From the sequence record OZ035767.1: a stretch of DNA of 44,816 nucleotides. One strand, written 5' to 3'. The translations under genes were made by a program, and so were the position numbers. This document shows, one piece after another, positions 554 to 43,498 of the stretch; position 1 is the stretch's first letter; the number at the start of each line of letters is the position of its first letter. The stretch is from Veterinaerplatzvirus T145P1. Below the pieces are notes generated by a model. The model was not told the origin of the DNA. It saw nothing but the letters and a program-made list of their open reading frames with translations, and did not search any database.

Positions 554-2119
554 ATGTCTTTAGTATGGGAAGAAATGACCATTCAGGAAAAGATGGCGGT
601 TAAGGCGATATCAGAACACAGCTTCGAGGGGTTTCTTCGCTGCTGGTTTTCAATAACGCAAGGCGAGCGATATATCCCTAACTGGCATCACAAATATCTA
701 TGCCGAATTATCGACGAGATTATTGCAGGTGAGCGCAAGGACACTATAATTAACATAGCGCCTGGTAGCGGGAAGACAGAGATCGCATCAATCCACTTCC
801 CGGCCTACTCGATGGTTAAGCTGAAGAAGGTGAGGAACCTTAACATCTCATTTGCTGACTCCCTGGTTAAGCGCAACTCTAAGCGCGTACGTGACCTTAT
901 CAAGTCTCAAGAATTTCAATCACTATGGCCTTGCAAGTTTGGCACATGCAAAGACGATGAACTTCAGGTTCTTGATGAGAGTGGCAGGGTTAGATTTGAG
1001 TCAATATCAAAGGCGGCTGGGGGTCAGATTACTGGTGCTCGAGGTGGTTATATAACAGAAACATATAGCGGAGCCGTTCTATTGGATGATTTTGACAAAC
1101 CCGCAGATATGCTTTCTCCGGTTTATCGAGCTAACAACCACGTAATGCTTAAGAACACAATTCGATCACGTCGCGCTAGCTCTGTAAAGGGAAAGGCAAC
1201 ACCAATTATCTCTATACAGCAGCGCCTGCACGTCAATGACTCAACCTGGTTCATGATGGAAGGCGGTATGGGCATCGAATTCGATTTAATTAAGATACCA
1301 GCGCTAGTTACCGATGATTACATCGATTCACTTCCTGACTGGATTAAAGATCAGTTTGCTGAGGACGTACTAAGCAGTGAATATATTGAGCGAGATGGAG
1401 TAAAGTACTACAGCTACTTTCCTAAAAAGGAATCCGTAAACGACCTGGTGGCAATGTGGGATAGTGACCCGTACACTTTCCTTAGCCAATATCAACAATG
1501 CCCAGTGGCTCTTGGCGGTAACCTGATTAACGTGGATTGGTTCCAGCGTCTTAGTGATACATTCAGGCCTCCAGCTAAGTACGATTACAGATTCATCACA
1601 TGCGATACTGCGATGACTACAAAGAGTTATAGTGACTTCTCCGTGCTTCAGTTATGGGGCTATAAGGATGCTAAGATTTACCTGATAGACCAGCGCAGGG
1701 GAAAATGGGAAGCACCAGAGTTGGAGGCTGAACTGCTGGACTTCGAGAAGAAATCAAGGGCAACCAGTCAGTCAGATGGTATCCTCAGAAGGATTATTAT
1801 CGAGAAGAAAGCGTCTGGTATCGGCCTGATTCAATCAGCTGGCAGGGTTATGCGAACACCGATAGAGCCATACGTACCGGATAACGACAAGCTGACTCGC
1901 GTAATGAGCGCATTGCCACAGATTAAGGCTGGTAATGTCGTTCTTCCAGAGTCTGCGCCGTGGCTAAACGGATTGCTTACTGAGGTTGCTGCTTTTACGG
2001 CAGATGATAGCCACAAACACGACGACCAGATTGACTGTCTAACTATGGCAATCAACCTGGTACTTAACATTGCGGACGACCCCAAAGCGCGACTAATGCG
2101 CATAGCGGGAATTAAATAG
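554..2119 (+). CDS. terminase large subunit (ATPase + nuclease)
   Basis: 521 aa; N-terminal P-loop-like GSGKTE, C-terminal acidic nuclease-like residues; first large gene of a packaging-head-tail module. Confidence 0.8.
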   Translation: MSLVWEEMTIQEKMAVKAISEHSFEGFLRCWFSITQGERYIPNWHHKYLCRIIDEIIAGERKDTIINIAPGSGKTEIASIHFPAYSMVKLKKVRNLNISFADSLVKRNSKRVRDLIKSQEFQSLWPCKFGTCKDDELQVLDESGRVRFESISKAAGGQITGARGGYITETYSGAVLLDDFDKPADMLSPVYRANNHVMLKNTIRSRRASSVKGKATPIISIQQRLHVNDSTWFMMEGGMGIEFDLIKIPALVTDDYIDSLPDWIKDQFAEDVLSSEYIERDGVKYYSYFPKKESVNDLVAMWDSDPYTFLSQYQQCPVALGGNLINVDWFQRLSDTFRPPAKYDYRFITCDTAMTTKSYSDFSVLQLWGYKDAKIYLIDQRRGKWEAPELEAELLDFEKKSRATSQSDGILRRIIIEKKASGIGLIQSAGRVMRTPIEPYVPDNDKLTRVMSALPQIKAGNVVLPESAPWLNGLLTEVAAFTADDSHKHDDQIDCLTMAINLVLNIADDPKARLMRIAGIK

Positions 2120-2162
2120 CACGAATTGCTAAACGCTAGAGCCACGGATGGCGTATAGTTAC
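2117..2162 (+). promoter_or_regulatory. conserved palindrome-promoter element, copy 1
   Basis: ATAGCACGAATTGCTAAA - 22 nt - TATAGTTA; terL stop TAG lies inside the palindrome. Confidence 0.6.
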
Positions 2163-2190
2163 TTCACACCAACAAGAGGAGAAAAGGCAA

Positions 2191-2565
2191 ATGAAAAACA
2201 AATCAAAGGCTTTATATCTTGGAAACACTTATGACGAGTGTTGTGAATTCACGCCGGGAAGAGAGTACGATTGTTACGATCTTGGTGATGGATTTATTGG
2301 TCTTTGCGATGATAATGATACTGAACGTTGCATTAAAAACGGAACGTTCTACAAGTTTAAACTAATCAATGAGGAACATTTTGTAACTGAAACTGAGTGC
2401 GCATCCATGCAGCCTAGCGCCGATAAAAAACCCGAGTTTAGATATTACATCAATGGCGAAGTGGTTACTAAGGTAAAGTTCGACGATACGCTATTATGCG
2501 TCAAGGACTTTGAATCTAGTGGGGTTGATACATCATCAATCAAGTTCGAAGTAAAATTCGAGTAA
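2191..2565 (+). CDS. hypothetical Cys-rich protein (moron-like insertion between terminase and portal)
   Basis: 124 aa, many Cys/Asp; own upstream promoter-like element (2117-2162) and downstream terminator (2587-2610). Confidence 0.55.
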   Translation: MKNKSKALYLGNTYDECCEFTPGREYDCYDLGDGFIGLCDDNDTERCIKNGTFYKFKLINEEHFVTETECASMQPSADKKPEFRYYINGEVVTKVKFDDTLLCVKDFESSGVDTSSIKFEVKFE

Positions 2566-2586
2566 TCAAAAACCGTGTGATAAACT

Positions 2587-2610
2587 AGCCCCCACATGGG
2601 GCTTTTTTTA
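2587..2610 (+). terminator. rho-independent terminator
   Basis: AGCCCC-ACAT-GGGGCT hairpin then T7. Confidence 0.7.
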
Positions 2611-2623
2611 TTGGAGAAATGCA

Positions 2624-5028: not shown

Positions 5029-5040
5029 GGAGTTATAAAC

Positions 5041-9259: not shown

Positions 9260-9265
9260 AGCACA

Positions 9266-9288
9266 AACCCTCTTCGGAGGGTTTTTTA
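9266..9288 (+). terminator. rho-independent terminator after major tail protein gene
   Basis: ACCCTC-TTCG-GAGGGT hairpin then T6. Confidence 0.75.
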
Positions 9289-9292: not shown

Positions 9293-9338
9293 ATAGCACT
9301 TTTTGCTAAAGCGGTTATTCAACTTTGCTGTATAGTTA
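9293..9338 (+). promoter_or_regulatory. conserved palindrome-promoter element, copy 2
   Basis: ATAGCACTTTTTGCTAAA - 22 nt - TATAGTTACC then CATCGAAACGAAA leader. Confidence 0.6.
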
Positions 9339-9369
9339 CCTCATCGAAACGAAATGAGAGATTAAAGAA

Positions 9370-20510: not shown

Positions 20511-20546
20511 TTTGTATTCCTTATTAAGTTGTTTCGTTTCGATGTA

Positions 20547-20594
20547 GTAATAATACAACCGTCAGTGCGGAATGTCTTTAGCTATTCGTGCTAT
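20547..20594 (-). promoter_or_regulatory. conserved palindrome-promoter element, copy 3 (minus strand)
   Basis: Reverse complement reads ATAGCACGAATAGCTAAA ... TATTATTAC ... CATCGAAACGAAAC upstream of the lipoprotein gene. Confidence 0.5.
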
Positions 20595-21452: not shown

Positions 21453-22414
21453 CTTTCAGGGTTTACACACGAGAGGAGCTAAGCAACGAGGATTACCACT
21501 CAGAGCAAGATCACATCTCAGGTAGTTCACTTGTCGAGATTATCCAGGGCTCACCAGCTAAGTGGAAATTTAAACAGCGCAACAATGATAGCAAGGCTCT
21601 TAAGTTTGGAACGCTGAGTCACACGTACATCCTAGAAGGTGACATGTTTGACAAAGAATACCTTCGAGCTACAGACCTTGACGCGATTGAAGGCTTAATT
21701 ACAAGCCAGGCAGGATTAGCAGCAGCACTTAAAAAAGTCGGTGTGGCTGGAACATCAGGGAAGGGCTATAGCGAGCTTGTAGAGATGATGTATCGTTCTG
21801 GCGAGGACTGGCCCATTAAGTGGCTAATTGATCAGCTGGAAAGCGCTCAAGCGCTTGTGGAGGGTAAGGAGCTAGTTAGCGCAGCAGACTATGACAAAGT
21901 TGTGGCTATGCGTGAGGTTCTTTGCAATATTCCGGCATACAATGCAATCGTGAATAGTGAGACGGCGCAGAAAGAGTTATCAATCTTCGGTGAGATTCTC
22001 GGCGTCGGCGTTAAGATTCGAATTGACCATGTTGATGTTGTTGATGGCGTTGTTCGGATCACGGATTATAAAACGACAGCCGACGCAAGCCCTGAAGGAT
22101 TTGGTAAGTCTGCATTTAATCACGGATACCTTGCAAAAATGGCGCTTCAGCGCGATCTGTTTGTGAAAGCATTTAACGAGAAGCGCAAGGTTGTTGTAGG
22201 ATTGCTGGCGCAGGAGAAGGTGGAGCCATACCTACCAATGCTGTACACACTAACCGACGAACAGCTACGAATTGGTCGCCTTCAGTATCTTGAGGCACTT
22301 GCAACTTACAAGAAGTGCAAGGAGCTTGATATTTGGCCTGGATATTCTAACGGCATTACAGAGCAAGAGCTATTGGTTCCTGATTGGGCCATTAAACAAT
22401 ATAGAGAGATATAA
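21449..22414 (+). CDS. putative PD-(D/E)XK-family recombination exonuclease
   Basis: 321 aa with D...DYK motif (ITDYKTT); sits next to ERF and SSB genes. Confidence 0.5.
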   Translation: MTFRVYTREELSNEDYHSEQDHISGSSLVEIIQGSPAKWKFKQRNNDSKALKFGTLSHTYILEGDMFDKEYLRATDLDAIEGLITSQAGLAAALKKVGVAGTSGKGYSELVEMMYRSGEDWPIKWLIDQLESAQALVEGKELVSAADYDKVVAMREVLCNIPAYNAIVNSETAQKELSIFGEILGVGVKIRIDHVDVVDGVVRITDYKTTADASPEGFGKSAFNHGYLAKMALQRDLFVKAFNEKRKVVVGLLAQEKVEPYLPMLYTLTDEQLRIGRLQYLEALATYKKCKELDIWPGYSNGITEQELLVPDWAIKQYREI

Positions 22415-22415
22415 A

Positions 22416-22880
22416 ATGAACAAAGATTGCTGGCAGACTCCTTTAGACTTATTCAAACCGATAGATGATAAATACAAATTCAAGGTTGACGTGTGCGCAA
22501 GCCAAGAAAACGCGCTTTGTAAATATTACTGGACTGTAGATGATGACTGCTTGCAACAGGATTGGGGAGATGATGGTGGTTTCGTTTGGTGCAATCCACC
22601 ATATAGCAATCCATTACCATTTGTTGAAAAGTGCCAGCAATACGGCTATGCGGTCATGCTATTGAATCAGGATACGTCAACAAAATGGGCTAAGATAGTC
22701 TTTGAAAAAGCATCAAAGGTTATACTTTTATCAGACAGGGTTAGGTTTATAAATCCAGTAACAATGGAGGTTGGTAAGTCAAATCCTAAATGCCAGATGA
22801 TTGTAGTTTTCGACAGGCGTAGCAATTCTGGAGTTGATATACGTTGGTGTTCAATAAAAGAAATTCATAAGCAAATTTAA
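22416..22880 (+). CDS. dam: DNA N6-adenine methyltransferase (phage Dam-type)
   Basis: Start ATG 22416 with RBS; NPPY catalytic motif (WCNPPYSN); small phage Dam architecture. Confidence 0.8.
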   Translation: MNKDCWQTPLDLFKPIDDKYKFKVDVCASQENALCKYYWTVDDDCLQQDWGDDGGFVWCNPPYSNPLPFVEKCQQYGYAVMLLNQDTSTKWAKIVFEKASKVILLSDRVRFINPVTMEVGKSNPKCQMIVVFDRRSNSGVDIRWCSIKEIHKQI

Positions 22881-22925
22881 ATAGCATGAATTGCTAAAGA
22901 CAAAACTAAAGGGTGTGGGTATGAT
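22881..22925 (+). promoter_or_regulatory. conserved palindrome-promoter element, copy 4
   Basis: ATAGCATGAATTGCTAAA - about 23 nt - TATGATTA; starts right at the methyltransferase stop. Confidence 0.5.
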
Positions 22926-22954
22926 TACCCAATCAACAACGAACGAGGTTAAAG

Positions 22955-26458: not shown

Positions 26459-26476
26459 ATAGCACGAATTGCTAAA
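26459..26476. promoter_or_regulatory. orphan copy of the palindrome (no canonical downstream -10 box)
   Basis: ATAGCACGAATTGCTAAA, 24 nt upstream of the minus-strand tail fibre start codon. Confidence 0.4.
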
Positions 26477-26499
26477 GTGGATTGTAGCATCTTTGAGTC

Positions 26500-27449: not shown

Positions 27450-27504
27450 AATTACCTCCATAAACAATAAAGGCACTATACATAATGCAAAGTGCCATTG
27501 TTTA

Positions 27505-27984
27505 TCAAATCGTGCTGTTTTGCTCTTTCTTCTTTTGGTTCTCTAATTTTATCTTGCGCCATGAACGACACTCTGGCTTAGTGGCTAATTCAGCCTCAGT
27601 GACGACTCGCAGCATATGGCGCTTTTTGCACCGAAGTGTCAGCGGTTTCCCGTTGCCGTCGAATTGCAGGTCTGGTCGGCAGAATGTAGCGCGAAAACCT
27701 TCTCCATTTCGCTTATAGTAGTTGTGAGAAAGTTGAGCCCCACGCGCAGAAATCATACCGCGCTTAAACCATTCTTCTACAGCCTGTGGTGTTACCTTTA
27801 ACTGCTTTGCGATATTCGCCTTTGTGCCGAAGAAATCAAGAACTATCTCTAGCCGCGCGCGTAGCCCGGCTCTTACTTCATCTTTTAAAACATAGTAGCC
27901 TGAAGGTCGTTTACGTTGCTTTTTGTCTTCGGTGCGGATGGTTCCGTTATTGCCGTTAATTGTTCGCTTGTCGACTGTATTCAT
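27505..27984 (-). CDS. HTH DNA-binding protein, putative transcriptional regulator
   Basis: 159 aa, basic; HTH-like segment TKANIAKQLKVTPQAVEEWF; divergent from helicase promoter element. Confidence 0.5.
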   Translation of the reverse strand: MNTVDKRTINGNNGTIRTEDKKQRKRPSGYYVLKDEVRAGLRARLEIVLDFFGTKANIAKQLKVTPQAVEEWFKRGMISARGAQLSHNYYKRNGEGFRATFCRPDLQFDGNGKPLTLRCKKRHMLRVVTEAELATKPECRSWRKIKLENQKKKEQNSTI

Positions 27985-27996: not shown

Positions 27997-28040
27997 ATAG
28001 CATTTTTTGTTAAAAGTCATCCTGATTTGATGGTATTATT
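27997..28040 (+). promoter_or_regulatory. conserved palindrome-promoter element (variant), helicase operon
   Basis: ATAGCATTTTTTGTTAAAA - about 21 nt - GATGGTATTATT; sits between divergent regulator and helicase genes. Confidence 0.5.
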
Positions 28041-28085
28041 GTACTCAATTAAACGCTACAAGACAATTTTTATAGGAATTTAGAT

Positions 28086-30080: not shown

Positions 30081-30496
30081 AGATTACAGATAAAGAAGAT
30101 TACATTGAGTTTTACCCGGGTCCGGTTAAGTCATGCCCTAAAGAGGATGACGAACAAATCTTTTGCTCTGATTGGGTTAAGTATAACTACCCAGATATGG
30201 TATTTTTCCATTGCGTGAATGAGGGAAAGAAAACCATTGGTCAAGCAAGAAAAGACCAGGCTAAGGGGCTTCTAAAAGGCGTATCAGACTGTATGTTTCT
30301 TATTCCTGAATCACTTCGAGGTAAGTATCCTTTCGGAGCTATAGAGCTAAAGAGGGCTGGCAAAACTCAAGCAAGTCCAGTCAGCGAAGAACAGAAGGCA
30401 TTCCTGAAAAGTGTAATGGAATCAGGCGGTTTCTCGGCAGTCGCCTACGGACGTGAGGGTTTTCTTGCAGCATTCAAAGAAATGATTTCAAAATAG
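30077..30496 (+). CDS. VRR-NUC domain nuclease
   Basis: 139 aa with PD-(D/E)XK-like D...ELK core; ATGA-coupled to helicase. Confidence 0.6.
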   Translation: MKITDKEDYIEFYPGPVKSCPKEDDEQIFCSDWVKYNYPDMVFFHCVNEGKKTIGQARKDQAKGLLKGVSDCMFLIPESLRGKYPFGAIELKRAGKTQASPVSEEQKAFLKSVMESGGFSAVAYGREGFLAAFKEMISK

Positions 30497-30538
30497 CACG
30501 AATTGCTAAAGGCGATTTTAAAAGATGGGGTATAGTTA
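30493..30538 (+). promoter_or_regulatory. conserved palindrome-promoter element
   Basis: ATAGCACGAATTGCTAAA - 22 nt - TATAGTTACTCCATCGAAACGAAAC; VRR-NUC stop TAG inside palindrome. Confidence 0.6.
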
Positions 30539-30572
30539 CTCCATCGAAACGAAACACAAAGAGAGAAATAAA

Positions 30573-31346: not shown

Positions 31347-31537
31347 TTAATGCAACTTGTGTAAAAGCAAATGGTTTCTTTACTCTACTTGAAGATTACG
31401 AAATTATCTTTAATTCAGATGGCGCAATAACAGTATTGAGCGATAATGGATGCTATTGGTTCGTTAGTTATCAAGGTGACGGGTATTACGGGTGTAGAGA
31501 TTCGAATGGAAAAGAAGTTAGCTTCTTAGTTGAATAG
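31343..31537 (+). CDS. hypothetical protein
   Basis: 64 aa, ATGA overlap; stop embedded in promoter element. Confidence 0.5.
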   Translation: MINATCVKANGFFTLLEDYEIIFNSDGAITVLSDNGCYWFVSYQGDGYYGCRDSNGKEVSFLVE

Positions 31538-31578
31538 CACTTTTTGTTAAAACTCAAATCCACGTATGGATTATATTA
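31534..31578 (+). promoter_or_regulatory. conserved palindrome-promoter element (variant)
   Basis: ATAGCACTTTTTGTTAAA - about 21 nt - TATATTA. Confidence 0.5.
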
Positions 31579-31607
31579 AGCACATCAACAACACATAGGA
31601 TTAAGAG

Positions 31608-32315: not shown

Positions 32316-33446
32316 ATGGCAACCGCAAAAATCACCAACGAACAATTGCGCGAAGAGTTAGCAAATGGCATGACCAACAAGGCAATCGCAGAGAAGTACG
32401 GAATGAACATTCGCAACGTTGAATTGCGTCGCAGTAAATTAGCTAAACAAGGCGAAGGGCATGGTCGCGATGTAAGCAACTTAATCCCTCAGGGCTATGC
32501 AGTTAAAGGCGTCTCCAGCTTAATTGGTGCTGATGGCGAGATTAAGCAACAGTGGGTTAAATCAGATATCGACAAGGAGAAGCAAGAAGAGATGATGCTT
32601 CAGGCAATTCAGGCCCTAACTGATGAGTTGCCGCGTGAGAAAGCTAAAGCTTTAAGGGTTGGTTTATGGGAAGATACTTTAAGCCTTTACCCCGTGTTCG
32701 ACCTCCACATTGGAGCAATGGCTCATCATGCTGAGTGTGGTGAGAACTATAGTACTGAAATCGCTGAGAGAGTTCTTAATGATTACTTTGATTACGCGGT
32801 TGCAAAGGCCCCCAACTCCAAGAAAGCTGTATTGCTGATTGGGGGTGACTTCCTTCACTCTGACGGAATGGAAGCGGTAACACCAACCAGTCGTCATGTT
32901 CTTGATCAAGATAGCCGTTATCACAAACTTGTTTACGTAGCAGTGCGATCGACACGTCGAGCAATTAGCCGCATGCTTGATAAGCACGCCGAGGTTGAGG
33001 TTCAGATTATTCCAGGTAACCACGATCTCTCAGGTATGATTTGGCTTCGTGCTGCAATGGCAGCTTTCTATATGGATGAGCCTCGAGTTAATGTTGATGC
33101 GTCCCCCGCTGCGCTTCACGTAACGCAATTTGGGAAGACGCTGCTTGGTTACTGCCATGGGCACGAACTCAAAAAGCCTGATACCCGACTATCAGCACTG
33201 GCTCGTGACCATCGCAAAGCATTTGGTGAATCAGAGTATGTTTACACCCATTCAGGCCACTATCACCATCAAACTATTACGGAAGGAAATCTGGGTATTG
33301 ATGAATCACACGGCCAGCTTGGAGCGAAAGATGCGTACAGTGCTAACGGAGGTTATCGCTCTTACCGACAGGCTTCGGTGATAATTTATAGTCCTGAGTT
33401 TGGTGAGATTGGACGATTTACTTGCCGCCCGGAAATGTTTAGTTAA
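32316..33446 (+). CDS. calcineurin-like metallophosphoesterase with N-terminal HTH-like domain
   Basis: GDFLHSD, GNHD, GH motifs characteristic of metallophosphatases; N-terminal segment resembles sigma-70 region-4-type HTH. Confidence 0.6.
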   Translation: MATAKITNEQLREELANGMTNKAIAEKYGMNIRNVELRRSKLAKQGEGHGRDVSNLIPQGYAVKGVSSLIGADGEIKQQWVKSDIDKEKQEEMMLQAIQALTDELPREKAKALRVGLWEDTLSLYPVFDLHIGAMAHHAECGENYSTEIAERVLNDYFDYAVAKAPNSKKAVLLIGGDFLHSDGMEAVTPTSRHVLDQDSRYHKLVYVAVRSTRRAISRMLDKHAEVEVQIIPGNHDLSGMIWLRAAMAAFYMDEPRVNVDASPAALHVTQFGKTLLGYCHGHELKKPDTRLSALARDHRKAFGESEYVYTHSGHYHHQTITEGNLGIDESHGQLGAKDAYSANGGYRSYRQASVIIYSPEFGEIGRFTCRPEMFS

Positions 33447-33491
33447 TAGCACTTTTTGCCTAACGCATGCCGTAGAAATGCGGCATAATTA
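33446..33491 (+). promoter_or_regulatory. conserved palindrome-promoter element (variant)
   Basis: ATAGCACTTTTTGCCTAA - 22 nt - CATAATTACCACATCGAAACGAGA. Confidence 0.55.
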
Positions 33492-33530
33492 CCACATCGA
33501 AACGAGATGAACTAAACGAGGAAACACAAA

Positions 33531-35347: not shown

Positions 35348-36931
35348 TCACCCCAGCAATCTCGGATTAATGTAAACTTTATCACCAATCAGGCACGTAT
35401 AGTTTTTCTCATCAAGCATTGGCAGTAAGTGATCTTTAATCTTCGTCATCACTCCAGCCTGAGCCTCGAACGGCTTAACCTTTCGCGCCGCTTCATACAA
35501 TGAGCGAATGCCAACAACACCCTTACCGTTTTTACCCTGCTTGATCAGGATATCAATCAGCTTATTCATCTCGGCATTGTCGCCAGCGTGACCAGCCGCG
35601 TTGGCAGATGACAAATAAGTCTTGCTAAGCTCCTGGAACATGATTACAGCTTCTTGCATGGTATCAAGCTCAATCTCTCTGGATTTCTGTGGACTCCCAC
35701 CGCTAGGGTTGAACCAGTTGCGCACTGTGTGAAGAACAGCAGCAATCCTGATAGCCTGCTTATCGAATTTACCCAGCGCGCCGCGCAACATTGTGTGGGA
35801 ATACTTACCGCCGTCCGCAAGGTGCGGCTCCATTTCCTGACGTGCCCGGTTTAGATATTTCATCGCTGAGTTGCTAACCGTCAACTTTACTTCTTGCTCA
35901 TTCATGATTTCGTGAACCAGGCGGAAGTAGTTAGCCTTAAGCTCACCATCAATTGGCTCGTAAGTTGAGTTGCCATTCTCATCGACGAATACACGCTCGC
36001 CAAGGAATGATTTTTCACGCACAAGTAGAAAACGTTCCGACACACCAATACCACGAGCACCAGCATTCATGATTGCGTTTATTGTCTCATCTTGCGCAAT
36101 TACAGAGATGCATCCCATAGCGACGAAGCTCATGTTGTTTTCTGCGTTCGCACGCGCAATGGACACGTTACCAGCATCCCACGCCTTGAGTACGAGCTCG
36201 CTGTTCGTTTTCTTTGAGCCATCACCATAGGTCATACCTAGCAGAGAGTTCACGCTCGTTGCTTCATCAGAGATAACCGCGAAGTTGCCCTGGCGGTTGT
36301 TTATTCGCGCAAGACCTTCAGGCGTCGTATCTGATACTGGAAATACGATATCGCACATCTTTTCCAGCTTCTCCTCTAAATCCTCTTTCTCCTCAAAGAG
36401 AGACGCCATCTCTGATGGTGACTTTTCCTGCTTCATCTCTTTGGATAATGCAGACAGCTTTGCCATAATCTTTTTACGCTCACGCTTTCGCACTTCATTA
36501 AGCCGCTCAGTCTCAGCAATCATTGGCGCAATAGAAAGCGAGTTAATTGCTGATTTACCTGTGGATGGTGGCTGACTGGTTACTACGTATAGAGAGGTCG
36601 GTTGCTGGGTTCCGTGATACTCTACTGTAAAACGTCCCAGCATGGCGGCAGAAATACACCCCAGAAAGTGCATATAAGCTGAAGACTCTGGAAATTGAAC
36701 AGAACGGGCAATATTGGCTGACAGCTTACCAACAACATCAATGTCATTACCGAGTGAGATTACTGGATACTTGTCATTAGCCGCATCAATCTCAACTGGC
36801 GCTTTCCAGAATGATTGAGACTGACGATATCCATTGGCATTAATAGCGACGCGCAGGGGTGGGAGGTTGTCTGCGGCAGCAATTGCCATAACCTGTTCAA
36901 CAGATAGCTTATCTTCGTTGAAATCAAACAT
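35348..36931 (-). CDS. P-loop NTPase of unknown function (possible replication/primase-associated ATPase)
   Basis: 527 aa; Walker A PPSTGKS and Walker B-like VISDEA. Confidence 0.55.
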   Translation of the reverse strand: MFDFNEDKLSVEQVMAIAAADNLPPLRVAINANGYRQSQSFWKAPVEIDAANDKYPVISLGNDIDVVGKLSANIARSVQFPESSAYMHFLGCISAAMLGRFTVEYHGTQQPTSLYVVTSQPPSTGKSAINSLSIAPMIAETERLNEVRKRERKKIMAKLSALSKEMKQEKSPSEMASLFEEKEDLEEKLEKMCDIVFPVSDTTPEGLARINNRQGNFAVISDEATSVNSLLGMTYGDGSKKTNSELVLKAWDAGNVSIARANAENNMSFVAMGCISVIAQDETINAIMNAGARGIGVSERFLLVREKSFLGERVFVDENGNSTYEPIDGELKANYFRLVHEIMNEQEVKLTVSNSAMKYLNRARQEMEPHLADGGKYSHTMLRGALGKFDKQAIRIAAVLHTVRNWFNPSGGSPQKSREIELDTMQEAVIMFQELSKTYLSSANAAGHAGDNAEMNKLIDILIKQGKNGKGVVGIRSLYEAARKVKPFEAQAGVMTKIKDHLLPMLDEKNYTCLIGDKVYINPRLLG

Positions 36932-37117
36932 TACTTCTCTCCGTGTTGTTTCTGAGCGGCCATTATAACAACGACCGCTTATAAAGCATTATCAATTTGT
37001 GCTATTAATTGTTCTTAATCCACTTTAGACACATCCACAATCCAGCCCCATAGAATGCAATCTTGAGAACTTCAGCTAAGACAAGGATAATAAAGTATCC
37101 ACCACCAAGTAAATCAA

Positions 37118-37707: not shown

Positions 37708-37746
37708 TTCTTTTACCCTTCGTTGTTTCGTTTCGTTTCGATTGGA

Positions 37747-37790
37747 TAACTATACATTGAAAGCCCCGAAGGGCTTTAGCAATTAGTGCT
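37747..37790 (-). promoter_or_regulatory. conserved palindrome-promoter element (minus strand)
   Basis: Reverse complement: AGCACTAATTGCTAAA - 22 nt containing a GC hairpin - TATAGTTA, then CGAAACGAAACGAAAC leader. Confidence 0.6.
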
Positions 37791-37937
37791 GTTTCGTGCT
37801 TTCTCTATCGCCTTGAGCATAATCTCGTGACTTTCCAGTAAGTCCTCTCGGAACCAATCTCCACAAGGCCAGCCTTTTCCGCTATAGGCACTTATGACCT
37901 CGAGATCGAAATAATTTATCTCAGATGGTAATAGCAT
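37776..37937 (-). CDS. hypothetical small protein
   Basis: 53-aa ORF, ATGA-coupled; stop codon lies inside the palindromic element. Confidence 0.35.
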   Translation of the reverse strand: MLLPSEINYFDLEVISAYSGKGWPCGDWFREDLLESHEIMLKAIEKARNSTNC

Positions 37938-38716: not shown

Positions 38717-38926
38717 TTTTGTTACCTTTTGAGTTTTTTTATTATCGACATCTCTTCAACGTACTCGCTACAACTCGGGATTTTACTCCCGGCCCGGCAT
38801 CCTAACAAAAGGACCCGATCGGCGCTTTGGTGGGTGAGGTAACGCTTCCTCACATTGCGCGGTAGTATTTACTCCTTTTGGTCTCTTTCGAGAGTGACTC
38901 AGAGTCTGCTACCGTGTCGATGAGAT

Positions 38927-38973
38927 TAAGTATACGCATAGTTAGCCACACTGTCTTTAGCAAAAAGTGCTAT
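38927..38973 (-). promoter_or_regulatory. conserved palindrome-promoter element (minus strand)
   Basis: Reverse complement: ATAGCACTTTTTGCTAAA - about 23 nt - TATACTTA. Confidence 0.5.
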
Positions 38974-38987
38974 TCGTTAGATTTATG

Positions 38988-39075
38988 TATTGTTGCAGAT
39001 ATTGCAATGATTCACTTGATTATTGCACATACAGCAATATTGCTTCCGATGCAATGATGTTTTTGATTGTTGCGA
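38988..39075. repeat. cluster of ATTGCA/TGCAAT half-sites and short palindromes
   Basis: ATTGCAAT (39001-39008), AGCAATATTGCT (39033-39044), plus repeated TTGCA/GCAAT units in the divergent control region. Confidence 0.6.
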
Positions 39076-39260
39076 AAAGTGAAATTAAGTGGTGAGTGAG
39101 TGAATGAAAGATGGATGGACTACCATACAAGTTGATTTTTACCAATCTATGGGAGCCTCACGGATATACGCGTATCCTCCGTATACTCAGTGTCGTCACA
39201 AAAGTTAGTGACCACTAACCTACGTTTTTACGCGATATATACACACGATATACAATATAA

Positions 39261-39326
39261 TATCTATATATATCAACCTTTTACTTTATTATTATTATTA
39301 TTATTATATATATGTATACTGTGTAT
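39261..39326. repeat. AT-rich repeat copy B with longer (TTA)n microsatellite
   Basis: Same unit as 20693-20750 with about two extra TTA triplets. Confidence 0.8.
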
Positions 39327-39602: not shown

Positions 39603-40151
39603 ATGCAGAAAGTAACACTAGGTGAAGTTATCCGTGAGATGGTGCGCAACGCGATGGTGTCCGAGAGTGGTGAGTTTAAAGTTCCGGTTAGCCAGATATT
39701 CAAACTGGTTCGAGGCAAGGAATACCCTGAAATGGTGTATGACGAAGATACTAGTGAGATCCTCAACCTGGCAGATAGGGCGATGCCGGAACTAAAGAAC
39801 TCATACATCTATAACACAGTGTCGAGAATGACAGAGCTTCGCGATGCTAATAAGCGAGCGAGATATAAGTTCATCTGGATTGATGATGACGGAGAGCAAA
39901 CAAGGCCCGGTAGCTTCGACGGTGATGGCGCTGATAAATACCTGGTCATATACATTGAGAACGGCGCGCACTGGACTGGGAGTCGCGAAAAGAAAAAGCA
40001 GGAAGCGGAGAAAGAGGCGGCTATCATTGAAAAGTTCAAGTCTAGACTGCTCAAGCTGTCACCAAGTGTTGCTGGCTTGGAAGGTGAAGAACTTAAGGGC
40101 GCTGTTACAATGATTAATGCTTATCAGGAAATGATTAAGGAGACTAAGTAG
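39603..40151 (+). CDS. hypothetical early protein
   Basis: 182 aa, RBS GAGGT; first gene downstream of early promoter region. Confidence 0.55.
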   Translation: MQKVTLGEVIREMVRNAMVSESGEFKVPVSQIFKLVRGKEYPEMVYDEDTSEILNLADRAMPELKNSYIYNTVSRMTELRDANKRARYKFIWIDDDGEQTRPGSFDGDGADKYLVIYIENGAHWTGSREKKKQEAEKEAAIIEKFKSRLLKLSPSVAGLEGEELKGAVTMINAYQEMIKETK

Positions 40152-40241
40152 TAGACTACCATACCACTTGCGGTACAGCGAGGAAGAGGTTGAGGTGGCC
40201 ATTGAGTTCTATCGGAAAGCTAAATCACTACTGAATGGTAA

Positions 40242-40287
40242 ATAGCACTTTTTGCCTAACGCGGTAATGCCATGGATGGCATAATAG
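40242..40287 (+). promoter_or_regulatory. conserved palindrome-promoter element (variant)
   Basis: ATAGCACTTTTTGCCTAA - 22 nt - CATAATAGCCTCATCGAAACGAGA. Confidence 0.55.
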
Positions 40288-40323
40288 CCTCATCGAAACG
40301 AGATACGTAAATGAGGATTTAAA

Positions 40324-40542
40324 ATGAGCAAGACAATCACGCTGCAATGCCTTAAGACAAATAACCCAGAGTTCTTAAAAGGTCACAAATATGTGGCAAC
40401 CCTGGTGGATGGGAAAACATGGGCGGTTAAGGGTGGATTCCAGGATTACAAATTCCCACTTGAGCACATACCTGGCGGAAACCTTGGTTTTGTTAGTGAC
40501 TGCCGCTCAGTTAAGTTTGTTTTTGAGGTTGTAATGAAATAG
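40324..40542 (+). CDS. hypothetical protein
   Basis: 72 aa, own promoter-like element. Confidence 0.5.
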   Translation: MSKTITLQCLKTNNPEFLKGHKYVATLVDGKTWAVKGGFQDYKFPLEHIPGGNLGFVSDCRSVKFVFEVVMK

Positions 40543-40582
40543 CAATAATTGCTAAATCTTCCGCAAGGCCATTTGATATAGT
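40539..40582 (+). promoter_or_regulatory. conserved palindrome-promoter element (perfect palindrome AGCAAT-A-ATTGCT)
   Basis: ATAGCAATAATTGCTAAA - 22 nt - TATAGT. Confidence 0.55.
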
Positions 40583-40623
40583 GGCCTTGTTGAAGCAAAA
40601 CAACCAATCACGAGGTATAAATT

Positions 40624-41063: not shown

Positions 41064-41101
41064 TCAAGATTCGCATTATCAATAACAACGAGGAAATGAA
41101 G

Positions 41102-41305
41102 ATGGAAAATATTCGTATTGAAGATGTTCACTTTGACCAAGCTGAGGTCGGAATCACAAAAAGCGCTCGCGGAGACGTTGTATATCTGGACTTTAATCCG
41201 GATGACTACGGGGACGGCCAGATGCTGATGCACTACAGTCCTGATAAGGCGCGCAAATTGGCGGCAGCATTAATCCTGGCGGCGGAGGAGGTGGAGAAGC
41301 AATGA
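41102..41305 (+). CDS. hypothetical protein (paralogue of 40624-40851)
   Basis: Start moved to second ATG (41102) for RBS spacing. Confidence 0.5.
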   Translation: MENIRIEDVHFDQAEVGITKSARGDVVYLDFNPDDYGDGQMLMHYSPDKARKLAAALILAAEEVEKQ

Positions 41306-41562
41306 AACGTTTAATGAAATGCATGACTATTATTGCGGCAATGATTGCTCTTACTGGTTGCGAGAAGGCACCTGAGGTTCAGATTCAGTCAGGTGAATTC
41401 AATGTGGAGCGCCTATTCACAGTGGATGGATGTACCGCCTACCGATTCCGAGATAGCGATAGAGCCATCTACTACACAAATTGCAATGGCAGTACGCAGA
41501 GTGAGTACAGGCACGGCAGGGCCATGAGACAAGAAACAGTTCAGACAGATCGCACTAATTGA
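41302..41562 (+). CDS. putative lipoprotein
   Basis: Signal peptide with lipobox LTGC; ATGA overlap. Confidence 0.5.
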   Translation: MKRLMKCMTIIAAMIALTGCEKAPEVQIQSGEFNVERLFTVDGCTAYRFRDSDRAIYYTNCNGSTQSEYRHGRAMRQETVQTDRTN

Positions 41563-41745
41563 TAAAAGGGGATCCATCCTGACTGGTATAATCCCCAGCA
41601 TCAACCACATGAATGGAAGTTAAGTGACGATATACGAACATAAATTCAGTAGCAGGGGTATTGATATGCTCCTGCGCTATGTAGACGAAAAATACGCAAA
41701 TCTCATGCTTAAGACGCATGGCGGCACAATAACGAGGATTGAGAT

Positions 41746-42075
41746 ATGAGTAAATACGATCGCAAGATTATTGGCATTGATGGCACAGTAACAACAGTAG
41801 ATGTTTATCGTGTTCTTGATGCGTTTGGCGTATCTGACCCAGCCACTCAGCATGCGGTAAAGAAGATGCTTTGCACTGGCCTGCGTGGACACAAGGATTA
41901 CTTAACTGACCTTAATGACTCCATTGAGTCACTACAGAAGGCTAAAGAGATTTACTGGCAGAAGATGATTCATGAATCCGATAAAATCACTGATTCAATT
42001 TTAAATCCACCAAAAGAAGCGAGATTTAGTACTGCTAATGGTTCAGAATTCACTTTCGGAAAGGTTAGAGTCTAA
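41746..42075 (+). CDS. hypothetical protein
   Basis: 109 aa. Confidence 0.5.
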   Translation: MSKYDRKIIGIDGTVTTVDVYRVLDAFGVSDPATQHAVKKMLCTGLRGHKDYLTDLNDSIESLQKAKEIYWQKMIHESDKITDSILNPPKEARFSTANGSEFTFGKVRV

Positions 42076-42122
42076 ATAGCACGAATTGCTAAACCCGCTC
42101 CTGCGGGTTTTGTTATAGTTAG
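42076..42122 (+). promoter_or_regulatory. conserved palindrome-promoter element
   Basis: ATAGCACGAATTGCTAAA - 22 nt containing hairpin CCCGC..GCGGG - TATAGTTA. Confidence 0.6.
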
Positions 42123-42147
42123 TTCACACCAATCGAGAGGTAAGAAA

Positions 42148-42240
42148 ATGAAGCAATACACATCAAGCAATCACCATAACGGTCACATCATGCAGTTCTA
42201 TCGCCACAATCTGAAGACTAAGGGAGTGTTTGGAAAATGA
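42148..42240 (+). CDS. hypothetical micro-protein (His-rich)
   Basis: 30-aa ORF after promoter element and RBS; ATGA-coupled downstream. Confidence 0.3.
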
Positions 42241-42455
42241 TTACAATTAACCTGTCAGAAAAGCAAGCAGCAGAACTCAAGTGCATGCTGTCAATCTTTG
42301 AGAAGACAAATGACCGAGCAATTGCAAAAGAGGTCACGACTCAAATCAACAACCAGCAGTTCGACGTCAGTGACTTCGAGTCGTCACGGCAGTACGAAGC
42401 ATTAAGCGTCAACGCTGCATACCTGGCTAACTGGGATAAGGCAACGAAGAAATGA
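42237..42455 (+). CDS. hypothetical protein
   Basis: 72 aa. Confidence 0.5.
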
Positions 42456-42589
42456 TTTACATCCACACGTACTACACTGGTAAGTTTAATAGCGTCAAAC
42501 ATGTCCGTGTTCACGATAACTACGAGAGCGCAAAAGCTCAATGGTTGGTTCTTGGTGGTGACATTAATTCATACAGAGTTGCTGAGTAG
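42452..42589 (+). CDS. hypothetical small protein
   Basis: 45-aa ORF, ATGA overlap; stop TAG embedded in palindromic element. Confidence 0.35.
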   Translation: MIYIHTYYTGKFNSVKHVRVHDNYESAKAQWLVLGGDINSYRVAE

Positions 42590-42632
42590 CACTAATTGCT
42601 AAAACAGTATTGGGGTAATTTGTTATAGTTAC
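42586..42632 (+). promoter_or_regulatory. conserved palindrome-promoter element
   Basis: GTAGCACTAATTGCTAAA - 22 nt - TATAGTTACCCCATCGAAACGAGAGAGG. Confidence 0.6.
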
Positions 42633-42659
42633 CCCATCGAAACGAGAGAGGAATAAGAA

Positions 42660-42839
42660 ATGACATTTCAACAAAGTGAGCCAAAGCTCCAGGCTAATCA
42701 CTTCGATGGTTATTCGACCTTTACCATTGCCCAGGCCTGCGGGATGCGTGACGAACCACAGGTTCACACAATTCACTTAACCGAAGAGCAGGCTCGAGAG
42801 ATTGCTTACGAAATTCTTGAGCAATTGAACCGAATTTAA
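42660..42839 (+). CDS. hypothetical small protein
   Basis: 59-aa ORF after promoter element and RBS. Confidence 0.4.
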   Translation: MTFQQSEPKLQANHFDGYSTFTIAQACGMRDEPQVHTIHLTEEQAREIAYEILEQLNRI

Positions 42840-42888
42840 CGCGACTAAAGCGCATTCTAACGAACGATAATTTAAGTAAGGTGATTCT

Positions 42889-43050
42889 ATGATTAAGATT
42901 GTTTATGTTGGCGAGAGTGATTATGTGGCGCTCATTCAGCGTGGTGATGTGTTCTTCGCTGAGCTAAGTGAGGATGGAAAATATTACATTGTAAAGAATA
43001 AGAATGGCGAGGATATTTACCTATCAAAAGATGAGGTCATAGTTCACTGA
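42889..43050 (+). CDS. hypothetical small protein
   Basis: 53-aa ORF with RBS. Confidence 0.35.
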   Translation: MIKIVYVGESDYVALIQRGDVFFAELSEDGKYYIVKNKNGEDIYLSKDEVIVH

Positions 43051-43181
43051 TGGATAACTACGAATCACCAAGCCAGTGGGCCAAACGAATGCAGGACGAA
43101 GCCAAGACTGGTGAAGAGGCGATGGCTTACTACGAGCTAGCGCAAATTTGGATGAAGCGGGAGGGCAAGAGCAATGATTAA
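43050..43181 (+). CDS. hypothetical small protein
   Basis: 43-aa ORF, overlapping start/stop. Confidence 0.3.
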   Translation: MDNYESPSQWAKRMQDEAKTGEEAMAYYELAQIWMKREGKSND

Positions 43182-43326
43182 CACTTGCATTTATTTTTAT
43201 GGCCATGAATTTATTGATGACTTAATGTACTTTCACGAAAAGTATGGCGACACATTCGAATGCGATGGTGACAATCTTGAGGTTCTAGCGACATTCAATA
43301 GGGGTGGCAAAAATGAGTTTCACTGA
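43174..43326 (+). CDS. hypothetical small protein
   Basis: 50-aa ORF, overlapping. Confidence 0.3.
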   Translation: MINTCIYFYGHEFIDDLMYFHEKYGDTFECDGDNLEVLATFNRGGKNEFH

Positions 43327-43456
43327 ATATGTTATCGCATGTGAACGACTGGTCTTTGATATGAAGACTTTTCACTGGTTCATAATTAAGGATTTAGTTA
43401 AGCCTTATAAGAAAGGTGTTATGCCAGAGCAGTTTGTTAAGTCGTTCTACAAATAG
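43313..43456 (+). CDS. hypothetical small protein
   Basis: 47-aa ORF; stop TAG embedded in palindromic element. Confidence 0.3.
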   Translation: MSFTEYVIACERLVFDMKTFHWFIIKDLVKPYKKGVMPEQFVKSFYK

Positions 43457-43498
43457 CACGAATTGATAAACCAGATCGCCACGGATGGCATATAATCA
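43453..43498 (+). promoter_or_regulatory. conserved palindrome-promoter element (variant)
   Basis: ATAGCACGAATTGATAAA - 22 nt - TATAATCACC. Confidence 0.55.

Follow-up and report, generated by a model that had tools for sequence, protein, structure and literature searches.

Closest described systems

The closest described promoters are the class II promoters of the MarA/SoxS/Rob family in E. coli and Salmonella, with micF as archetype and candidate sites of the same kind at inaA, fumC and sodA. The consensus of their binding site, the marbox (also soxbox or robbox), is quoted as AYNGCACNNWNNRYYAAAYN (PMC2064960, PMC3709825), and a form derived from ChIP-seq reads gcannwwntgnnaaa (PMC12052159). 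ChIP-seq combined with cappable-seq in Salmonella revealed that forward sites cluster at -41 and that the class II promoters, while possessing a canonical -10, lack any recognisable -35 (PMC10268841), while base-specific contacts at -47G, -45A, -38G, -37T, -35 and -34 were resolved by cryo-EM of Rob with RNA polymerase at micF (PMC9178005). Among T1-like phages, a 21-nt direct repeat, aaATAGCACnnnTTGnTAAAA, has been published for TLS and also noted in T1, Rtp and Rogue1; the passages devoted to it cite Roberts et al. 2004 for the TLS repeat and leave its function open, as a stoperator, enhancer site or UP element (PMC11447400).

A recurring box in a T1-like phage

The window analysed here is the whole 44,816-nt stretch of Veterinaerplatzvirus T145P1 DNA (OZ035767.1), from a Drexlerviridae (T1-like) coliphage, as the initial annotation had supposed. 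It contains 19 copies of a box with the consensus aATAGCACnWWTTGyTAAA. The inner motif TAGCA-N5-TGCTA occurs exactly nine times against 0.03 expected, the extended box ATAGCACNNNTTGCTAAA at three or fewer mismatches 19 times against 1.9 expected, and composites of box plus -10 number 18 against ~1.4 in shuffled sequence. A sigma70 -10 hexamer lies 17-19 bp 3' of the box in 18 of the 19 copies (14 gaps of 18 bp, three of 19 bp and one of 17 bp), followed by a conserved A at +1, the ATCGAAACGA leader and then a gene. All 18 promoters are co-oriented with the downstream gene, the start codon lying 69-89 nt from the box (median ~76). The copies are as follows (window coordinates; gap 18 bp unless given; TSS, predicted transcription start site).

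2116-2166 (+): promoter; box 2116-2135 (ATAGCACGAATTGCTAAACG, 0 marbox mismatches); -10 TATAGT 2154-2159; TSS ~2166; gene start 2191
9293-9343 (+): promoter; box 9293-9312; -10 TATAGT 9331-9336; TSS ~9343; gene start 9370, tail chaperone/tape-measure operon
20543-20594 (-): promoter; box 20594-20575; gap 19; -10 TATTAT 20555-20550; TSS ~20543; gene start 20510
22881-22932 (+): promoter; box 22881-22900; gap 19; -10 TATGAT 22920-22925; TSS ~22932; Erf gene start 22955
26459-26478 (+): orphan box; no -10 downstream
27468-27518 (-): promoter; box 27518-27499, within the 3' end of the HTH gene; -10 TATAGT 27480-27475; TSS ~27468; primase start 27449
27997-28046 (+): promoter; box 27997-28016; gap 17; -10 TATTAT 28034-28039; TSS ~28046; helicase start 28086
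30493-30543 (+): promoter; box 30493-30512; -10 TATAGT 30531-30536; TSS ~30543; gene start 30573
31534-31584 (+): promoter; box 31534-31553; -10 TATATT 31572-31577; TSS ~31584; gene start 31608
33446-33496 (+): promoter; box 33446-33465; -10 CATAAT 33484-33489; TSS ~33496; gene start 33531, upstream of lysis genes
36955-37005 (-): promoter; box 37005-36986 (3 marbox mismatches); -10 TGtTATAAT 36970-36962; TSS ~36955; helicase start 36931
37742-37792 (-): promoter; box 37792-37773; -10 TATAGT 37754-37749; TSS ~37742; gene start 37707
38922-38973 (-): promoter; box 38973-38954; gap 19; -10 TATACT 38934-38929; TSS ~38922; leftward small early gene cluster
40242-40292 (+): promoter; box 40242-40261; -10 CATAAT 40280-40285; TSS ~40292; gene start 40324
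40539-40589 (+): promoter; box 40539-40558; -10 TATAGT 40577-40582; TSS ~40589; gene start 40624
41549-41599 (+): promoter; box 41549-41568; -10 TGgTATAAT 41584-41592; TSS ~41599
42076-42126 (+): promoter; box 42076-42095 (0 marbox mismatches); -10 TATAGT 42114-42119; TSS ~42126
42586-42636 (+): promoter; box 42586-42605; -10 TATAGT 42624-42629; TSS ~42636; gene start 42660
43453-43503 (+): promoter; box 43453-43472; -10 TATAAT 43491-43496; TSS ~43503; gene start 43530

The initial annotation had reported a recurring element at 16 positions, each of which carries a copy, and missed the copies at 27499-27518 (-), 36986-37005 (-) and 41549-41568 (+). Its three minus-strand entries, 20547, 37747 and 38927, give the coordinate on the -10 side; the corresponding boxes span 20575-20594, 37773-37792 and 38954-38973. 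One of its entries, the copy at 26459, lacks a -10 and does not belong to this promoter type. The ~22 nt that it gave between TTGCTA and TATAGT are correct and equal 18 bp from the 20-bp box to the hexamer. The TATAGTTA that it placed after this gap is exact in only nine places; the general form is a sigma70 -10 hexamer with at least 5/6 matches in 18/18, in which the A of position 2 and the T of position 6 are preserved. The GATGG and CATCGAAACGA leader that it had pointed out are both present, GATGG being the inverted-repeat partner of CCATC at -3 to +2.

Promoter architecture

Sequence features predict that the elements are promoters, as originally proposed. The TTGCTA arm is unfit as a -35, since a 22-bp spacer is outside the sigma70 range, and no -35 stands at the proper position, where the hexamers read AAAnnn or AAGACA. 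Provided that transcription starts 7 nt after the hexamer, as we infer for all box promoters, the box spans -50 to -31 and its centre falls at ~-41/-42, the class II activator position that had been suggested. A TGn extended -10 is present in 7/18 promoters, which might fire without an activator, whereas the 11/18 that lack both a -35 and an extended -10 would be expected to have very little activity on their own. Promoters of the canonical -35/-10 type show no enrichment (41 against 40 expected; 17 against 30 expected), in agreement with the TLS paper, where only three were found (PMC11447400).

The initial annotation read the box as an inverted repeat. Its inner part (TAGCA-N5-TGCTA) is a dyad, but the box as a whole is not a true one: the conserved A0/A1, C7 and T11 break the symmetry, always in the same orientation relative to the -10, and the position pairs (1,17), (0,18) and (7,11) are conserved yet asymmetric.

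Match to the host marbox

The phage box matches both forms of the E. coli marbox/soxbox/robbox, AYNGCACNNWNNRYYAAAYN and gcannwwntgnnaaa. Mismatches to the former number 0-2 in 18/19 boxes, two of which are exact, and three in the remaining one. When 47 promoters from three genomes are compiled into a frequency matrix, 13/14 specified marbox positions are kept (A1 in 45/47; G4, C5 and A6 in 47/47; C7 in 43; W10 in 47; G13 in 46; A16-18 in 43-47), as are 11/11 specified positions of the ChIP-seq-derived form, each in at least 43/47 sites. Marbox position 19 (Y) is unconserved; A3 and T11, at positions where the marbox has N, are near-invariant in the phage, which could reflect either selection for maximal affinity or a reader of different specificity. 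The mar operon box in reverse complement, ATGCCACGTTTTGCTAAATC, shares 16/20 identities with the phage T-type box, and the 3' half of the phage box is identical to that site.

The geometry also agrees. E. coli micF consists of the box ACAGCACTGAATGTCAAAAC, 18 bp and then TAGAAT, in the orientation and spacing found in the phage, and the bases contacted by Rob map to phage G4, A6, G13, Y14, A16 and A17 at identical promoter coordinates; five of these are near-invariant (43-47 of 47), and Y14 is C or T in 41/47. The phage set thus has what defines class II marbox promoters, namely an asymmetric 20-bp site that fits the marbox, lies forward in 18/18, is centred at ~-41 over the -35 region and is followed after 18 bp by a canonical -10 with no -35. 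Unlike the host promoters, it stands in a virulent phage at ~18 copies per 45 kb, and its boxes are far less degenerate, with A3, T11, T12 and T15 also fixed.

No MarA/SoxS/Rob homologue was found among the 714 six-frame ORFs of the window, and Pfam scans of 40 ORFs gave no AraC, MotA, AsiA or sigma domain above the cut-off, their sole trace being a weak sub-threshold Sigma70_r4_2/GerE-like match. Building on what is directly established (the box family, its geometry, the marbox match, conservation in the phage family and no phage AraC-type protein), we consider it somewhat probable that the elements are host-activator-dependent class II sigma70 promoters read by the MarA/SoxS/Rob(/RamA) family. 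Because the box is a near-consensus marbox, the reader is most likely a monomeric two-HTH host activator, whose binding we infer to activate transcription. Rob would be the likeliest default reader because this paralogue is already present in uninduced cells; it is expressed constitutively at a high level, although it is reportedly mostly sequestered and inactive without inducers, which counts against this choice (PMC9178005). The proposed marbox identity of the T1-like repeat is an addition of the present analysis, which the initial annotation had not considered.

In the proposed mechanism, the asymmetric 20-bp box (-50 to -31) would substitute for the -35 hexamer and be followed by an 18-bp spacer of free sequence, a TATAGT-like -10, a start at the conserved A seven nt on and an A/C-rich leader. 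The forward-bound activator would touch the alpha C-terminal domain and sigma70 region 4, keeping region 4 off the DNA as in micF complexes, and would recruit host RNA polymerase to ~18 phage operons: the early small genes, replication/recombination, the stretch ahead of the lysis genes, and two structural operons.

Conservation in relatives and the published repeat

Comparison with T1-like phages, which the initial annotation had recommended, revealed the same architecture in T1, ACG-M12, KP36, Vc1 and Motto, where each genome or half-genome yielded 11-21 composites and 0.2-1.4 were expected; the architecture was absent from the one unrelated Vibrio siphophage examined. Across three genomes, 56/66 boxes lie 18 +/- 1 bp upstream in a single orientation. 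Others are placed differently: T1 boxes overlap the -10 of the TerS promoter, and the 26459 box, reversed with respect to the minus strand, lies ~23 nt before the tail-fibre ATG and right after TACAAT, an arrangement kept in ACG-M12 and T1, and is possibly in a repression position. Of these box-carrying Drexlerviridae, Vc1 is recorded on Vibrio cholerae and Motto on Pseudomonas aeruginosa, hosts that to our knowledge lack SoxS and MarA; if these host records are right, an enteric-only host factor cannot be the whole story.

The 21-nt TLS repeat and the box described here are one element: both follow the direction of transcription, precede start codons by ~76 nt and divide into G, T and A subtypes according to the central triplet, and the window boxes share both the TLS consensus, aaATAGCACnnnTTGnTAAAA, and the distance from the start. 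The passages of the TLS paper that treat the repeat draw no link to the marbox or to a fixed 18-bp distance from the -10 (PMC11447400).

Alternative readers of the box

The initial annotation had named two phage HTH proteins as candidate binders. The HTH domain of the 32316-33446 product finds no support: the GerE/sigma70-region-4-like match on this SbcD-like exonuclease stays below threshold (E 0.01-0.03). The other is a rival candidate:

27505-27984 (-): Cro-like HTH protein, phrog_2856 'transcriptional regulator'

An alternative interpretation is that this protein, or the product of one of the many conserved small ORFs without a known function (~25 small ORFs have none), activates from ~-42, as lambda cI does at PRM, with the likeness to the marbox being convergent or coincidental. 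The exact inner dyad in nine copies would suit such a reader, as would the persistence of boxes in phages recorded on Vibrio and Pseudomonas; moreover, all Drexlerviridae relatives examined retain the HTH gene in synteny, and its protein could be made first because the gene has its own canonical promoter, TTGTCT-17-TACAAT at 28066-28038 (-), whose -10 overlaps that of the divergent 27997 promoter. We nevertheless consider this unlikely because each of the six relatives compared has its own set of DNA-facing residues in the recognition helix (P,Q,E,E / N,Q,Q,G / I,Q,Q,Q / H,A,S,E / C,V,T,N / Y,V,R,N), two of them glutamates in the window protein, while all share an invariant box, and because a homodimer would not be expected to read a site with the strongly conserved asymmetric A0/A1, C7 and T11 in one strict orientation. 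Nearly all early genes would also stay silent until one mid-genome gene was expressed, and the reproduction of all specified marbox positions and of the micF spacing would go unexplained. Lambda PRM, where a phage HTH dimer at OR2 engages sigma70 region 4, is alike in its ~-42 centre, weak -35 and phage regulon; however, OR2 is a genuine dyad bound by a dimer, and a usable -35 remains at PRM, whereas the phage box is asymmetric and has no -35, and the recognition helix here is unconserved. The site likewise does not fit a dimeric Cro/cI-type operator, being asymmetric and showing no co-variation of box and helix.

It is highly unlikely that the boxes are mainly negative or decoy sites, acting as stoperator-like repressor sites or as a MarA/SoxS/Rob sponge beside self-sufficient -10 promoters. 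The stoperator idea was raised by the TLS authors in discussing the repeat (PMC11447400), some boxes do occupy repression positions (the tail-fibre start in three genomes; the TerS -10 in T1), and 7/18 promoters have an extended -10, but the other 11/18 should be very weak alone, and the fixed 18 +/- 1 bp in one orientation marks a positive, polymerase-contacting site. Mycobacteriophage L5 stoperators resemble the boxes as many asymmetric genome-wide sites co-oriented with transcription; they differ in being repressor-dependent blocks within transcription units, with no fixed distance upstream of a -10.

T4 middle promoters also have a phage-family box in place of the -35 before a good sigma70 -10, and the MotA box (TGCTT) has the TGCT core in common with the phage box, which counts for a factor-independent element; the centre of the MotA box lies at -30, and ~12 bp separate it from the -10, whereas the phage box is centred at ~-40 and the Pfam scans of 40 ORFs returned no MotA_activ or AsiA hits. 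Such an element, either UP-like (alpha C-terminal domain) or a distant -35 recognised by sigma70 region 4, possibly with an AsiA/MotA-type appropriator, is most improbable despite the UP element suggested by the TLS authors in that account (PMC11447400) and the resemblance of TTGCTA to TTGACA, because UP elements are A/T-rich, lie at -40 to -60 and have low specificity, whereas G4, C5, C7 and G13 show little or no variation, the 22-bp spacer exceeds the sigma70 range and the same scans found no MotA, AsiA or sigma homologue.

Wider reading

Returning to class II promoters read by the MarA/SoxS/Rob family, a broader reading, doubtful as a whole, is that nearly the entire early/middle programme of T1-like phages is wired to these host activators of stress response and antibiotic resistance, with late blocking boxes and a titration switch. 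The box would sit in a blocking position at some late promoters (tail fibre here; TerS and a tail gene in T1), and each replicated genome would add ~20 high-affinity boxes competing for a fixed activator pool, whose titration would lower early promoters, raise late ones and drain the host mar/sox/rob response. If so, infection should be sensitive to bile salts, salicylate and oxidants.

T1 belongs to the original T phages, and transcription of its genes has long been obscure; published annotations report almost no sigma70 promoters and leave the repeat unexplained. The class II marbox reading supplies a concrete, cheaply testable candidate mechanism for T1-type transcription. We know of no earlier case of a whole lytic phage programme dependent on the host MarA/SoxS/Rob family, and this would be the first. 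Drexlerviridae occur commonly in gut and sewage, and E. coli and Klebsiella therapy collections make use of them; the reading, if true, would tie their infection to bile, salicylate, oxidative stress and marR/soxR/ramR resistance mutations, predict effects on phage-antibiotic interactions and yield a compact, strong set of Rob/MarA-responsive promoters.

Leaders, hairpins and terminators

Phage elements also differ from host marbox promoters in their conserved leader and in hairpins or terminators within the spacer. The spacer of the 37742 promoter contains the terminator-like hairpin AAAGCCCTTCGGGGCTTT, and that of the 42076 promoter houses a terminator hairpin at 42091-42110; a further terminator, at 9265-9284, lies directly 5' of the 9293 promoter. 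At the 40539 promoter, which is near-identical in T1 and KP36, AAGGCCA and TGGCCTT flank the -10.

A recurrent box with a −10 at a fixed distance

In the window, the exact dyad TAGCA-N5-TGCTA occurs nine times against 0.03 expected, and ATAGCACNNNTTGCTAAA with up to three mismatches, the 20-bp repeat hereafter called the box, occurs 19 times against 1.9 expected. A −10 hexamer (TATAAT matched at five or six positions, with A2 and T6 kept) follows 18 of the 19 boxes at 17–19 bp beyond the 20-bp box, the gap being exactly 18 bp in 14, and the exception, the box at 26459, has no −10. These 18 composites of box and −10 compare with ~1.4 in shuffled sequence, and every one faces a gene whose start codon lies 69–89 nt from the start of the box. 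The initial annotation, which had listed palindromes in front of operons on both strands, is confirmed and extended: a box was found at each position it named, although three of its minus-strand coordinates mark the −10 end of the element and not the box, and three boxes had been missed (27518, minus strand; 37005, minus strand; 41549, plus strand). Its distance of 22 nt is the same box-to-hexamer distance counted from TTGCTA, and this 22-bp spacer rules out TTGCTA as a −35, as it had also held.

The repeat family itself is already published. A 2024 re-annotation of phage TLS describes 21 occurrences of a direct repeat of 21 nt, aaATAGCACnnnTTGnTAAAA, co-oriented with transcription, ~76 nt ahead of start codons and reported also from T1, Rtp and Rogue1; the same paper gives only three σ70-like intergenic promoters for the TLS genome and suggests stoperators, enhancer-binding sites or UP elements as roles, leaving the question open (PMC11447400). 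Further T1-like genome papers just list BPROM or neural-network promoters.

A matrix pooled from the 47 promoters with an 18-bp gap in the window, T1 and ACG-M12 gives the box consensus a(0) A1 T2 A3 G4 C5 A6 C7 n W9 W10 T11 T12 G13 y14 T15 A16 A17 A18, in which all 47 promoters keep G4, C5, A6, W9, W10 and A17. The inner box is a dyad (TAGCA/TGCTA), broken by strongly conserved asymmetric positions (A0/A1 versus A17/A18, C7 versus T11), and the asymmetry points one way with respect to the −10 in every case. Beyond the box lie a nearly information-free spacer of 18 bp, a −10 region with G at −14 (33 of 47) and then T−12, A−11, T−10 and T−7, a TACC-like discriminator, and a predicted start with A at +1 (41 of 47), C before it and T after it. 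The leader is TCGAAACGA, then an A-rich stretch containing the ribosome-binding site. Positions +1 to +12, ATCGAAACGA(A/G)A, are conserved and A/C-rich (for example, window 9343-9355, 30543-30555 and 42636-42648), and the leader at 37742 carries tandem GAAAC units; the conserved leader may be a translation or stability element.

The box matches the marbox in sequence and geometry

By its sequence, the box is identified as the E. coli marbox/soxbox/robbox, the binding site of the activators MarA, SoxS and Rob. Compared with the published marbox consensus AYNGCACNNWNNRYYAAAYN (PMC2064960, PMC3709825), two boxes are exact and 18 of the 19 fall within two mismatches, the remaining one having three; of the 14 positions that the consensus specifies, 13 survive in the pooled matrix, Y19 alone being lost. 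All 11 specified positions of the ChIP-seq-based form, gcannwwntgnnaaa (PMC12052159), are matched by the phage box, and the ‘tg’ of this form explains the conserved T12 and G13; the phage boxes are also fixed at A3 and T11, which the marbox consensus leaves free. In MG1655, the site in the mar operon promoter has the reverse complement ATGCCACGTTTTGCTAAATC, which shares 16 of 20 positions with the phage box ATAGCACTTTTTGCTAAAGC. As a rough estimate, the chance of an unrelated motif matching the marbox consensus in some register is ~10^-3, a figure that allows for the number of known E. coli motifs (a few hundred) and does not yet count position and orientation.

MarA-family sites are reversed and upstream in class I promoters, and forward and overlapping the −35 in class II promoters (PMC12052159, PMC6900184). 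ChIP-seq with cappable-seq in Salmonella places forward sites in a cluster at −41, at class II promoters that have a canonical −10 and a −35 that is not recognisable (PMC10268841). The firm class II comparator is micF only: in MG1655, exactly 18 bp separate its box, ACAGCACTGAATGTCAAAAC, from a downstream TAGAAT, and the phage elements share its orientation and spacing. Candidate boxes at inaA (ahead of TATAGT) and sodA (ahead of TATAAT) obey the 18-bp rule but, with at least three mismatches, are weaker matches, and the −10 of fumC is ambiguous. On the assumption that transcription starts 7 nt after the hexamer, G4, A6, G13, A16 and A17 of the phage box lie at −47, −45, −38, −35 and −34, coordinates that coincide with those contacted in the cryo-EM structure of Rob, micF and RNA polymerase, in which base-specific contacts fall at −47G, −45A, −38G, −37T and −35/−34 (PMC9178005). 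In the Rob–micF and SoxS complexes the activator occludes σ70 region 4 from the −35, which would account for both the missing −35 and the sequence-free spacer; hexamers at the phage −35 position read AAAnnn. Sequence, geometry and structure-based comparison all favour reading the elements as candidate class II marbox promoters. We consider this reading well supported and, judged by the literature that can be searched, new: our searches found no paper linking T1-like phages to the marbox, MarA, SoxS or Rob.

The promoters are kept across Drexlerviridae

The first 20 kb of the window match Veterinaerplatzvirus T145P1 at ~99% and other T1-like Drexlerviridae coliphages (ACG-M12, SU57, DTL, JulesPiccard and others) at 86–93%, and the gene order is that of T1: terminase, portal, capsid, tail, RecE/Erf/SSB, tail fibre, primase and HTH, then helicase, SbcD-like exonuclease, lysis genes, second helicase and small-gene clusters. 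A Dam N6-adenine methyltransferase domain (Pfam, E 8e-39) is encoded by an ORF at 22272-22880, listed from a TTG start. Because the ORF as listed shares sequence with the end of the RecE-like gene, its true start is probably later. The comparison with T1-like phages that the initial annotation had proposed found the architecture of box and −10 again in T1, ACG-M12, KP36, Vc1 and Motto.

Composites of box and −10 in other phages (counts for T1 and ACG-M12 are of boxes within two marbox mismatches)
T1 (Tunavirinae): 21, expected 1.1
ACG-M12 (Braunvirinae): 19, expected 1.2
Klebsiella phage KP36 (Webervirus): 15, expected 0.25
Vibrio phage Vc1 (Jhansiroadvirus): 11, expected 0.46
Pseudomonas phage Motto (Tempevirinae), half of the genome: 15, expected 0.22
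Unrelated Vibrio siphophage with only terminase in common: 1, expected 0.4

All IMG/VR matches to the exact composite lie on contigs of 31–53 kb, the size of T1-like genomes. A scan of bacterial genomes for the box, 20 nt and TATAGT returned six stretches and no enterobacterial chromosomal copy; three are on 3.8–47-kb contigs in Nitratidesulfovibrio, Bacillota and Treponema assemblies, unlikely hosts, and are taken to be T1-like phage DNA, and two are single matches in Ulvibacterium chromosomes.

Candidate readers of the box

We lean towards a model in which a host activator of the MarA/SoxS/Rob type would bind the forward box at the −35 position and, once bound, would occlude σ70 region 4 from the −35. 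Rob would be the natural default, its expression being constitutive and high, whereas MarA and SoxS need induction; without inducers, Rob is described as largely sequestered (PMC9178005). This sequestration, the extended −10s of some promoters, the fixed A3 and T11 and the recorded hosts of Vc1 and Motto are among the caveats that keep our preference slight.

An alternative interpretation, which we consider improbable, is that the box is read by a phage-encoded protein. In its favour, the same box promoters persist in Vc1 and Motto, whose recorded hosts, V. cholerae and P. aeruginosa, to our knowledge lack MarA and SoxS. These records may be in doubt; if they are right, the box would have a reader that also occurs outside enterics, either an AraC-type equivalent provided by these hosts or a protein encoded by the phages. 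The many T1-like records assigned to ‘Campylobacter’ suggest that database hosts for Drexlerviridae are not always reliable.

A phage-encoded AraC/MarA-like activator is rejected: in 714 six-frame ORFs, the best match to MarA, SoxS, Rob or a profile built from them (phmmer, hmmsearch) had an E of ~1, and Pfam scans of 40 ORFs gave neither HTH_18, MotA or AsiA nor any sigma domain above cut-off, a sub-threshold Sigma70_r4_2/GerE-like match coming closest. Both HTH proteins that the initial annotation had put forward as binders are weak candidates. In the SbcD-like exonuclease (376 aa; 32316-33446), the N-terminus (32316-32450) has just a GerE/sigma70-region-4-like HTH match at E 0.01–0.03, under Pfam cut-offs; the GenBank note of its KP36 homologue carries the same HTH annotation. 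The Cro-like HTH protein (27505-27984; phrog_2856) matches P22_Cro at 4e-6, below the Pfam cut-off. It is conserved and syntenic throughout the Drexlerviridae relatives examined and is served by a canonical promoter of its own on the minus strand (TTGTCT-17-TACAAT), so its distribution alone does not speak against it. At window 28031-28066, this promoter and the plus-strand box promoter of the helicase are divergent with overlapping −10 hexamers, and the two should therefore compete for polymerase. Over its whole length the Cro-like protein is 50–70% conserved, and co-variation with the box is informative only at the recognition helix, which was aligned on P22 and lambda Cro, with Vc1 and Motto added.

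Residues at the four DNA-facing positions of the Cro-like recognition helix
Window: P, Q, E, E
ACG-M12: H, A, S, E
T1: N, Q, Q, G
KP36: I, Q, Q, Q
Vc1: C, V, T, N
Motto: Y, V, R, N

The box is identical in all six phages but the helix is variable, which argues against the Cro-like protein as its reader; an invariant box would fit a reader that lies outside the phage genomes and is conserved among hosts.

Less probable still are negative or decoy roles of the boxes, or roles independent of any factor. A TGn extended −10 is present in seven of the 18 promoters in the window, and these seven might be active unaided. Some boxes lie in blocking positions: in three subfamilies, a reversed box separates the tail-fibre start codon from a −10-like hexamer, and a protein bound there would block, not activate.

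Reversed boxes at the tail-fibre gene
Window 26459-26478
ACG-M12 32098
T1 34902, at a good TTGCAA-17-TAAAAT promoter

In T1, boxes also overlap or follow the −10 of the TerS (terminase small subunit) and tail-gene promoters. Blocking placements of both kinds raise the possibility that some late genes are repressed by the same reader. The TerS promoter of the window (44778-44816 joined to 1-30, spanning the window junction) differs from its T1 equivalent, which is overlapped by a box, in being a plain perfect extended −10 (TGGTATAAT) behind a terminator, without a box. The remaining proposals are rejected, an UP element because of the invariant G and C positions and a T4 MotA/AsiA-like appropriation because of position and the absence of homologues among the 40 ORFs scanned.

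Terminators and inverted repeats around the promoters

Canonical −35/−10 sites are at or below chance in both regions counted (41 versus 40 expected at 26–44.8 kb; 17 versus 30 expected at 1–20 kb), and terminators are enriched in the structural region (29 versus 16 expected). Some terminator hairpins are lodged in the 18-bp spacer itself, with a stem that begins in the AAA of the box and the −10 as T-rich tail, so that one operon ends within the promoter of the next.

Terminator hairpins in promoter spacers
Window 42091-42110, plus strand, promoter at 42076
Window ~37760-37777, minus strand, promoter at 37792
T1, four promoters: 38973-39001, 39998-40024, 41980-42007 and 35930-35971, coinciding with annotated terminators of the T1 record

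Taken from the spacer through +22, promoter sequences fold better than shuffled ones (mean z −1.7; z < −2 in 24 of 56 promoters from three phages). Inverted repeats bracket or abut the −10 in most box promoters, with arms that vary by promoter and stay complementary (for example, AAGGCCA..TATAGTGGCCTT, GGGGTAA..TTACCCC and GATGGGGTA..TACTCCATC), and most of them have no U-tract.

Examples of inverted repeats around the −10
Window 40559-40595
Window 42606-42640
Window 30513-30548
Window 36985-36950

Two further features were observed between genes. A large intergenic region holds a low-complexity TA/TTA run at 39230-39320 (ttattattattattattatatatatg) with many short inverted repeats. A gene-free stretch of ~630 bp adjoining the leftward promoter contains, at 38989-39085, a truly symmetric palindrome distinct from the box, TTGCA-N5-TGCAA, repeated in tandem three to four times; the copy at 38993 is exact, and those at 39023 and 39040 each have one mismatch. 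The T1 record has a pair of these palindromes at positions 2 and 32, 30 bp apart, at the left genome end where the terminal repeat starts; the array is a candidate pac/terminase site or a candidate operator for the Cro-like HTH protein.
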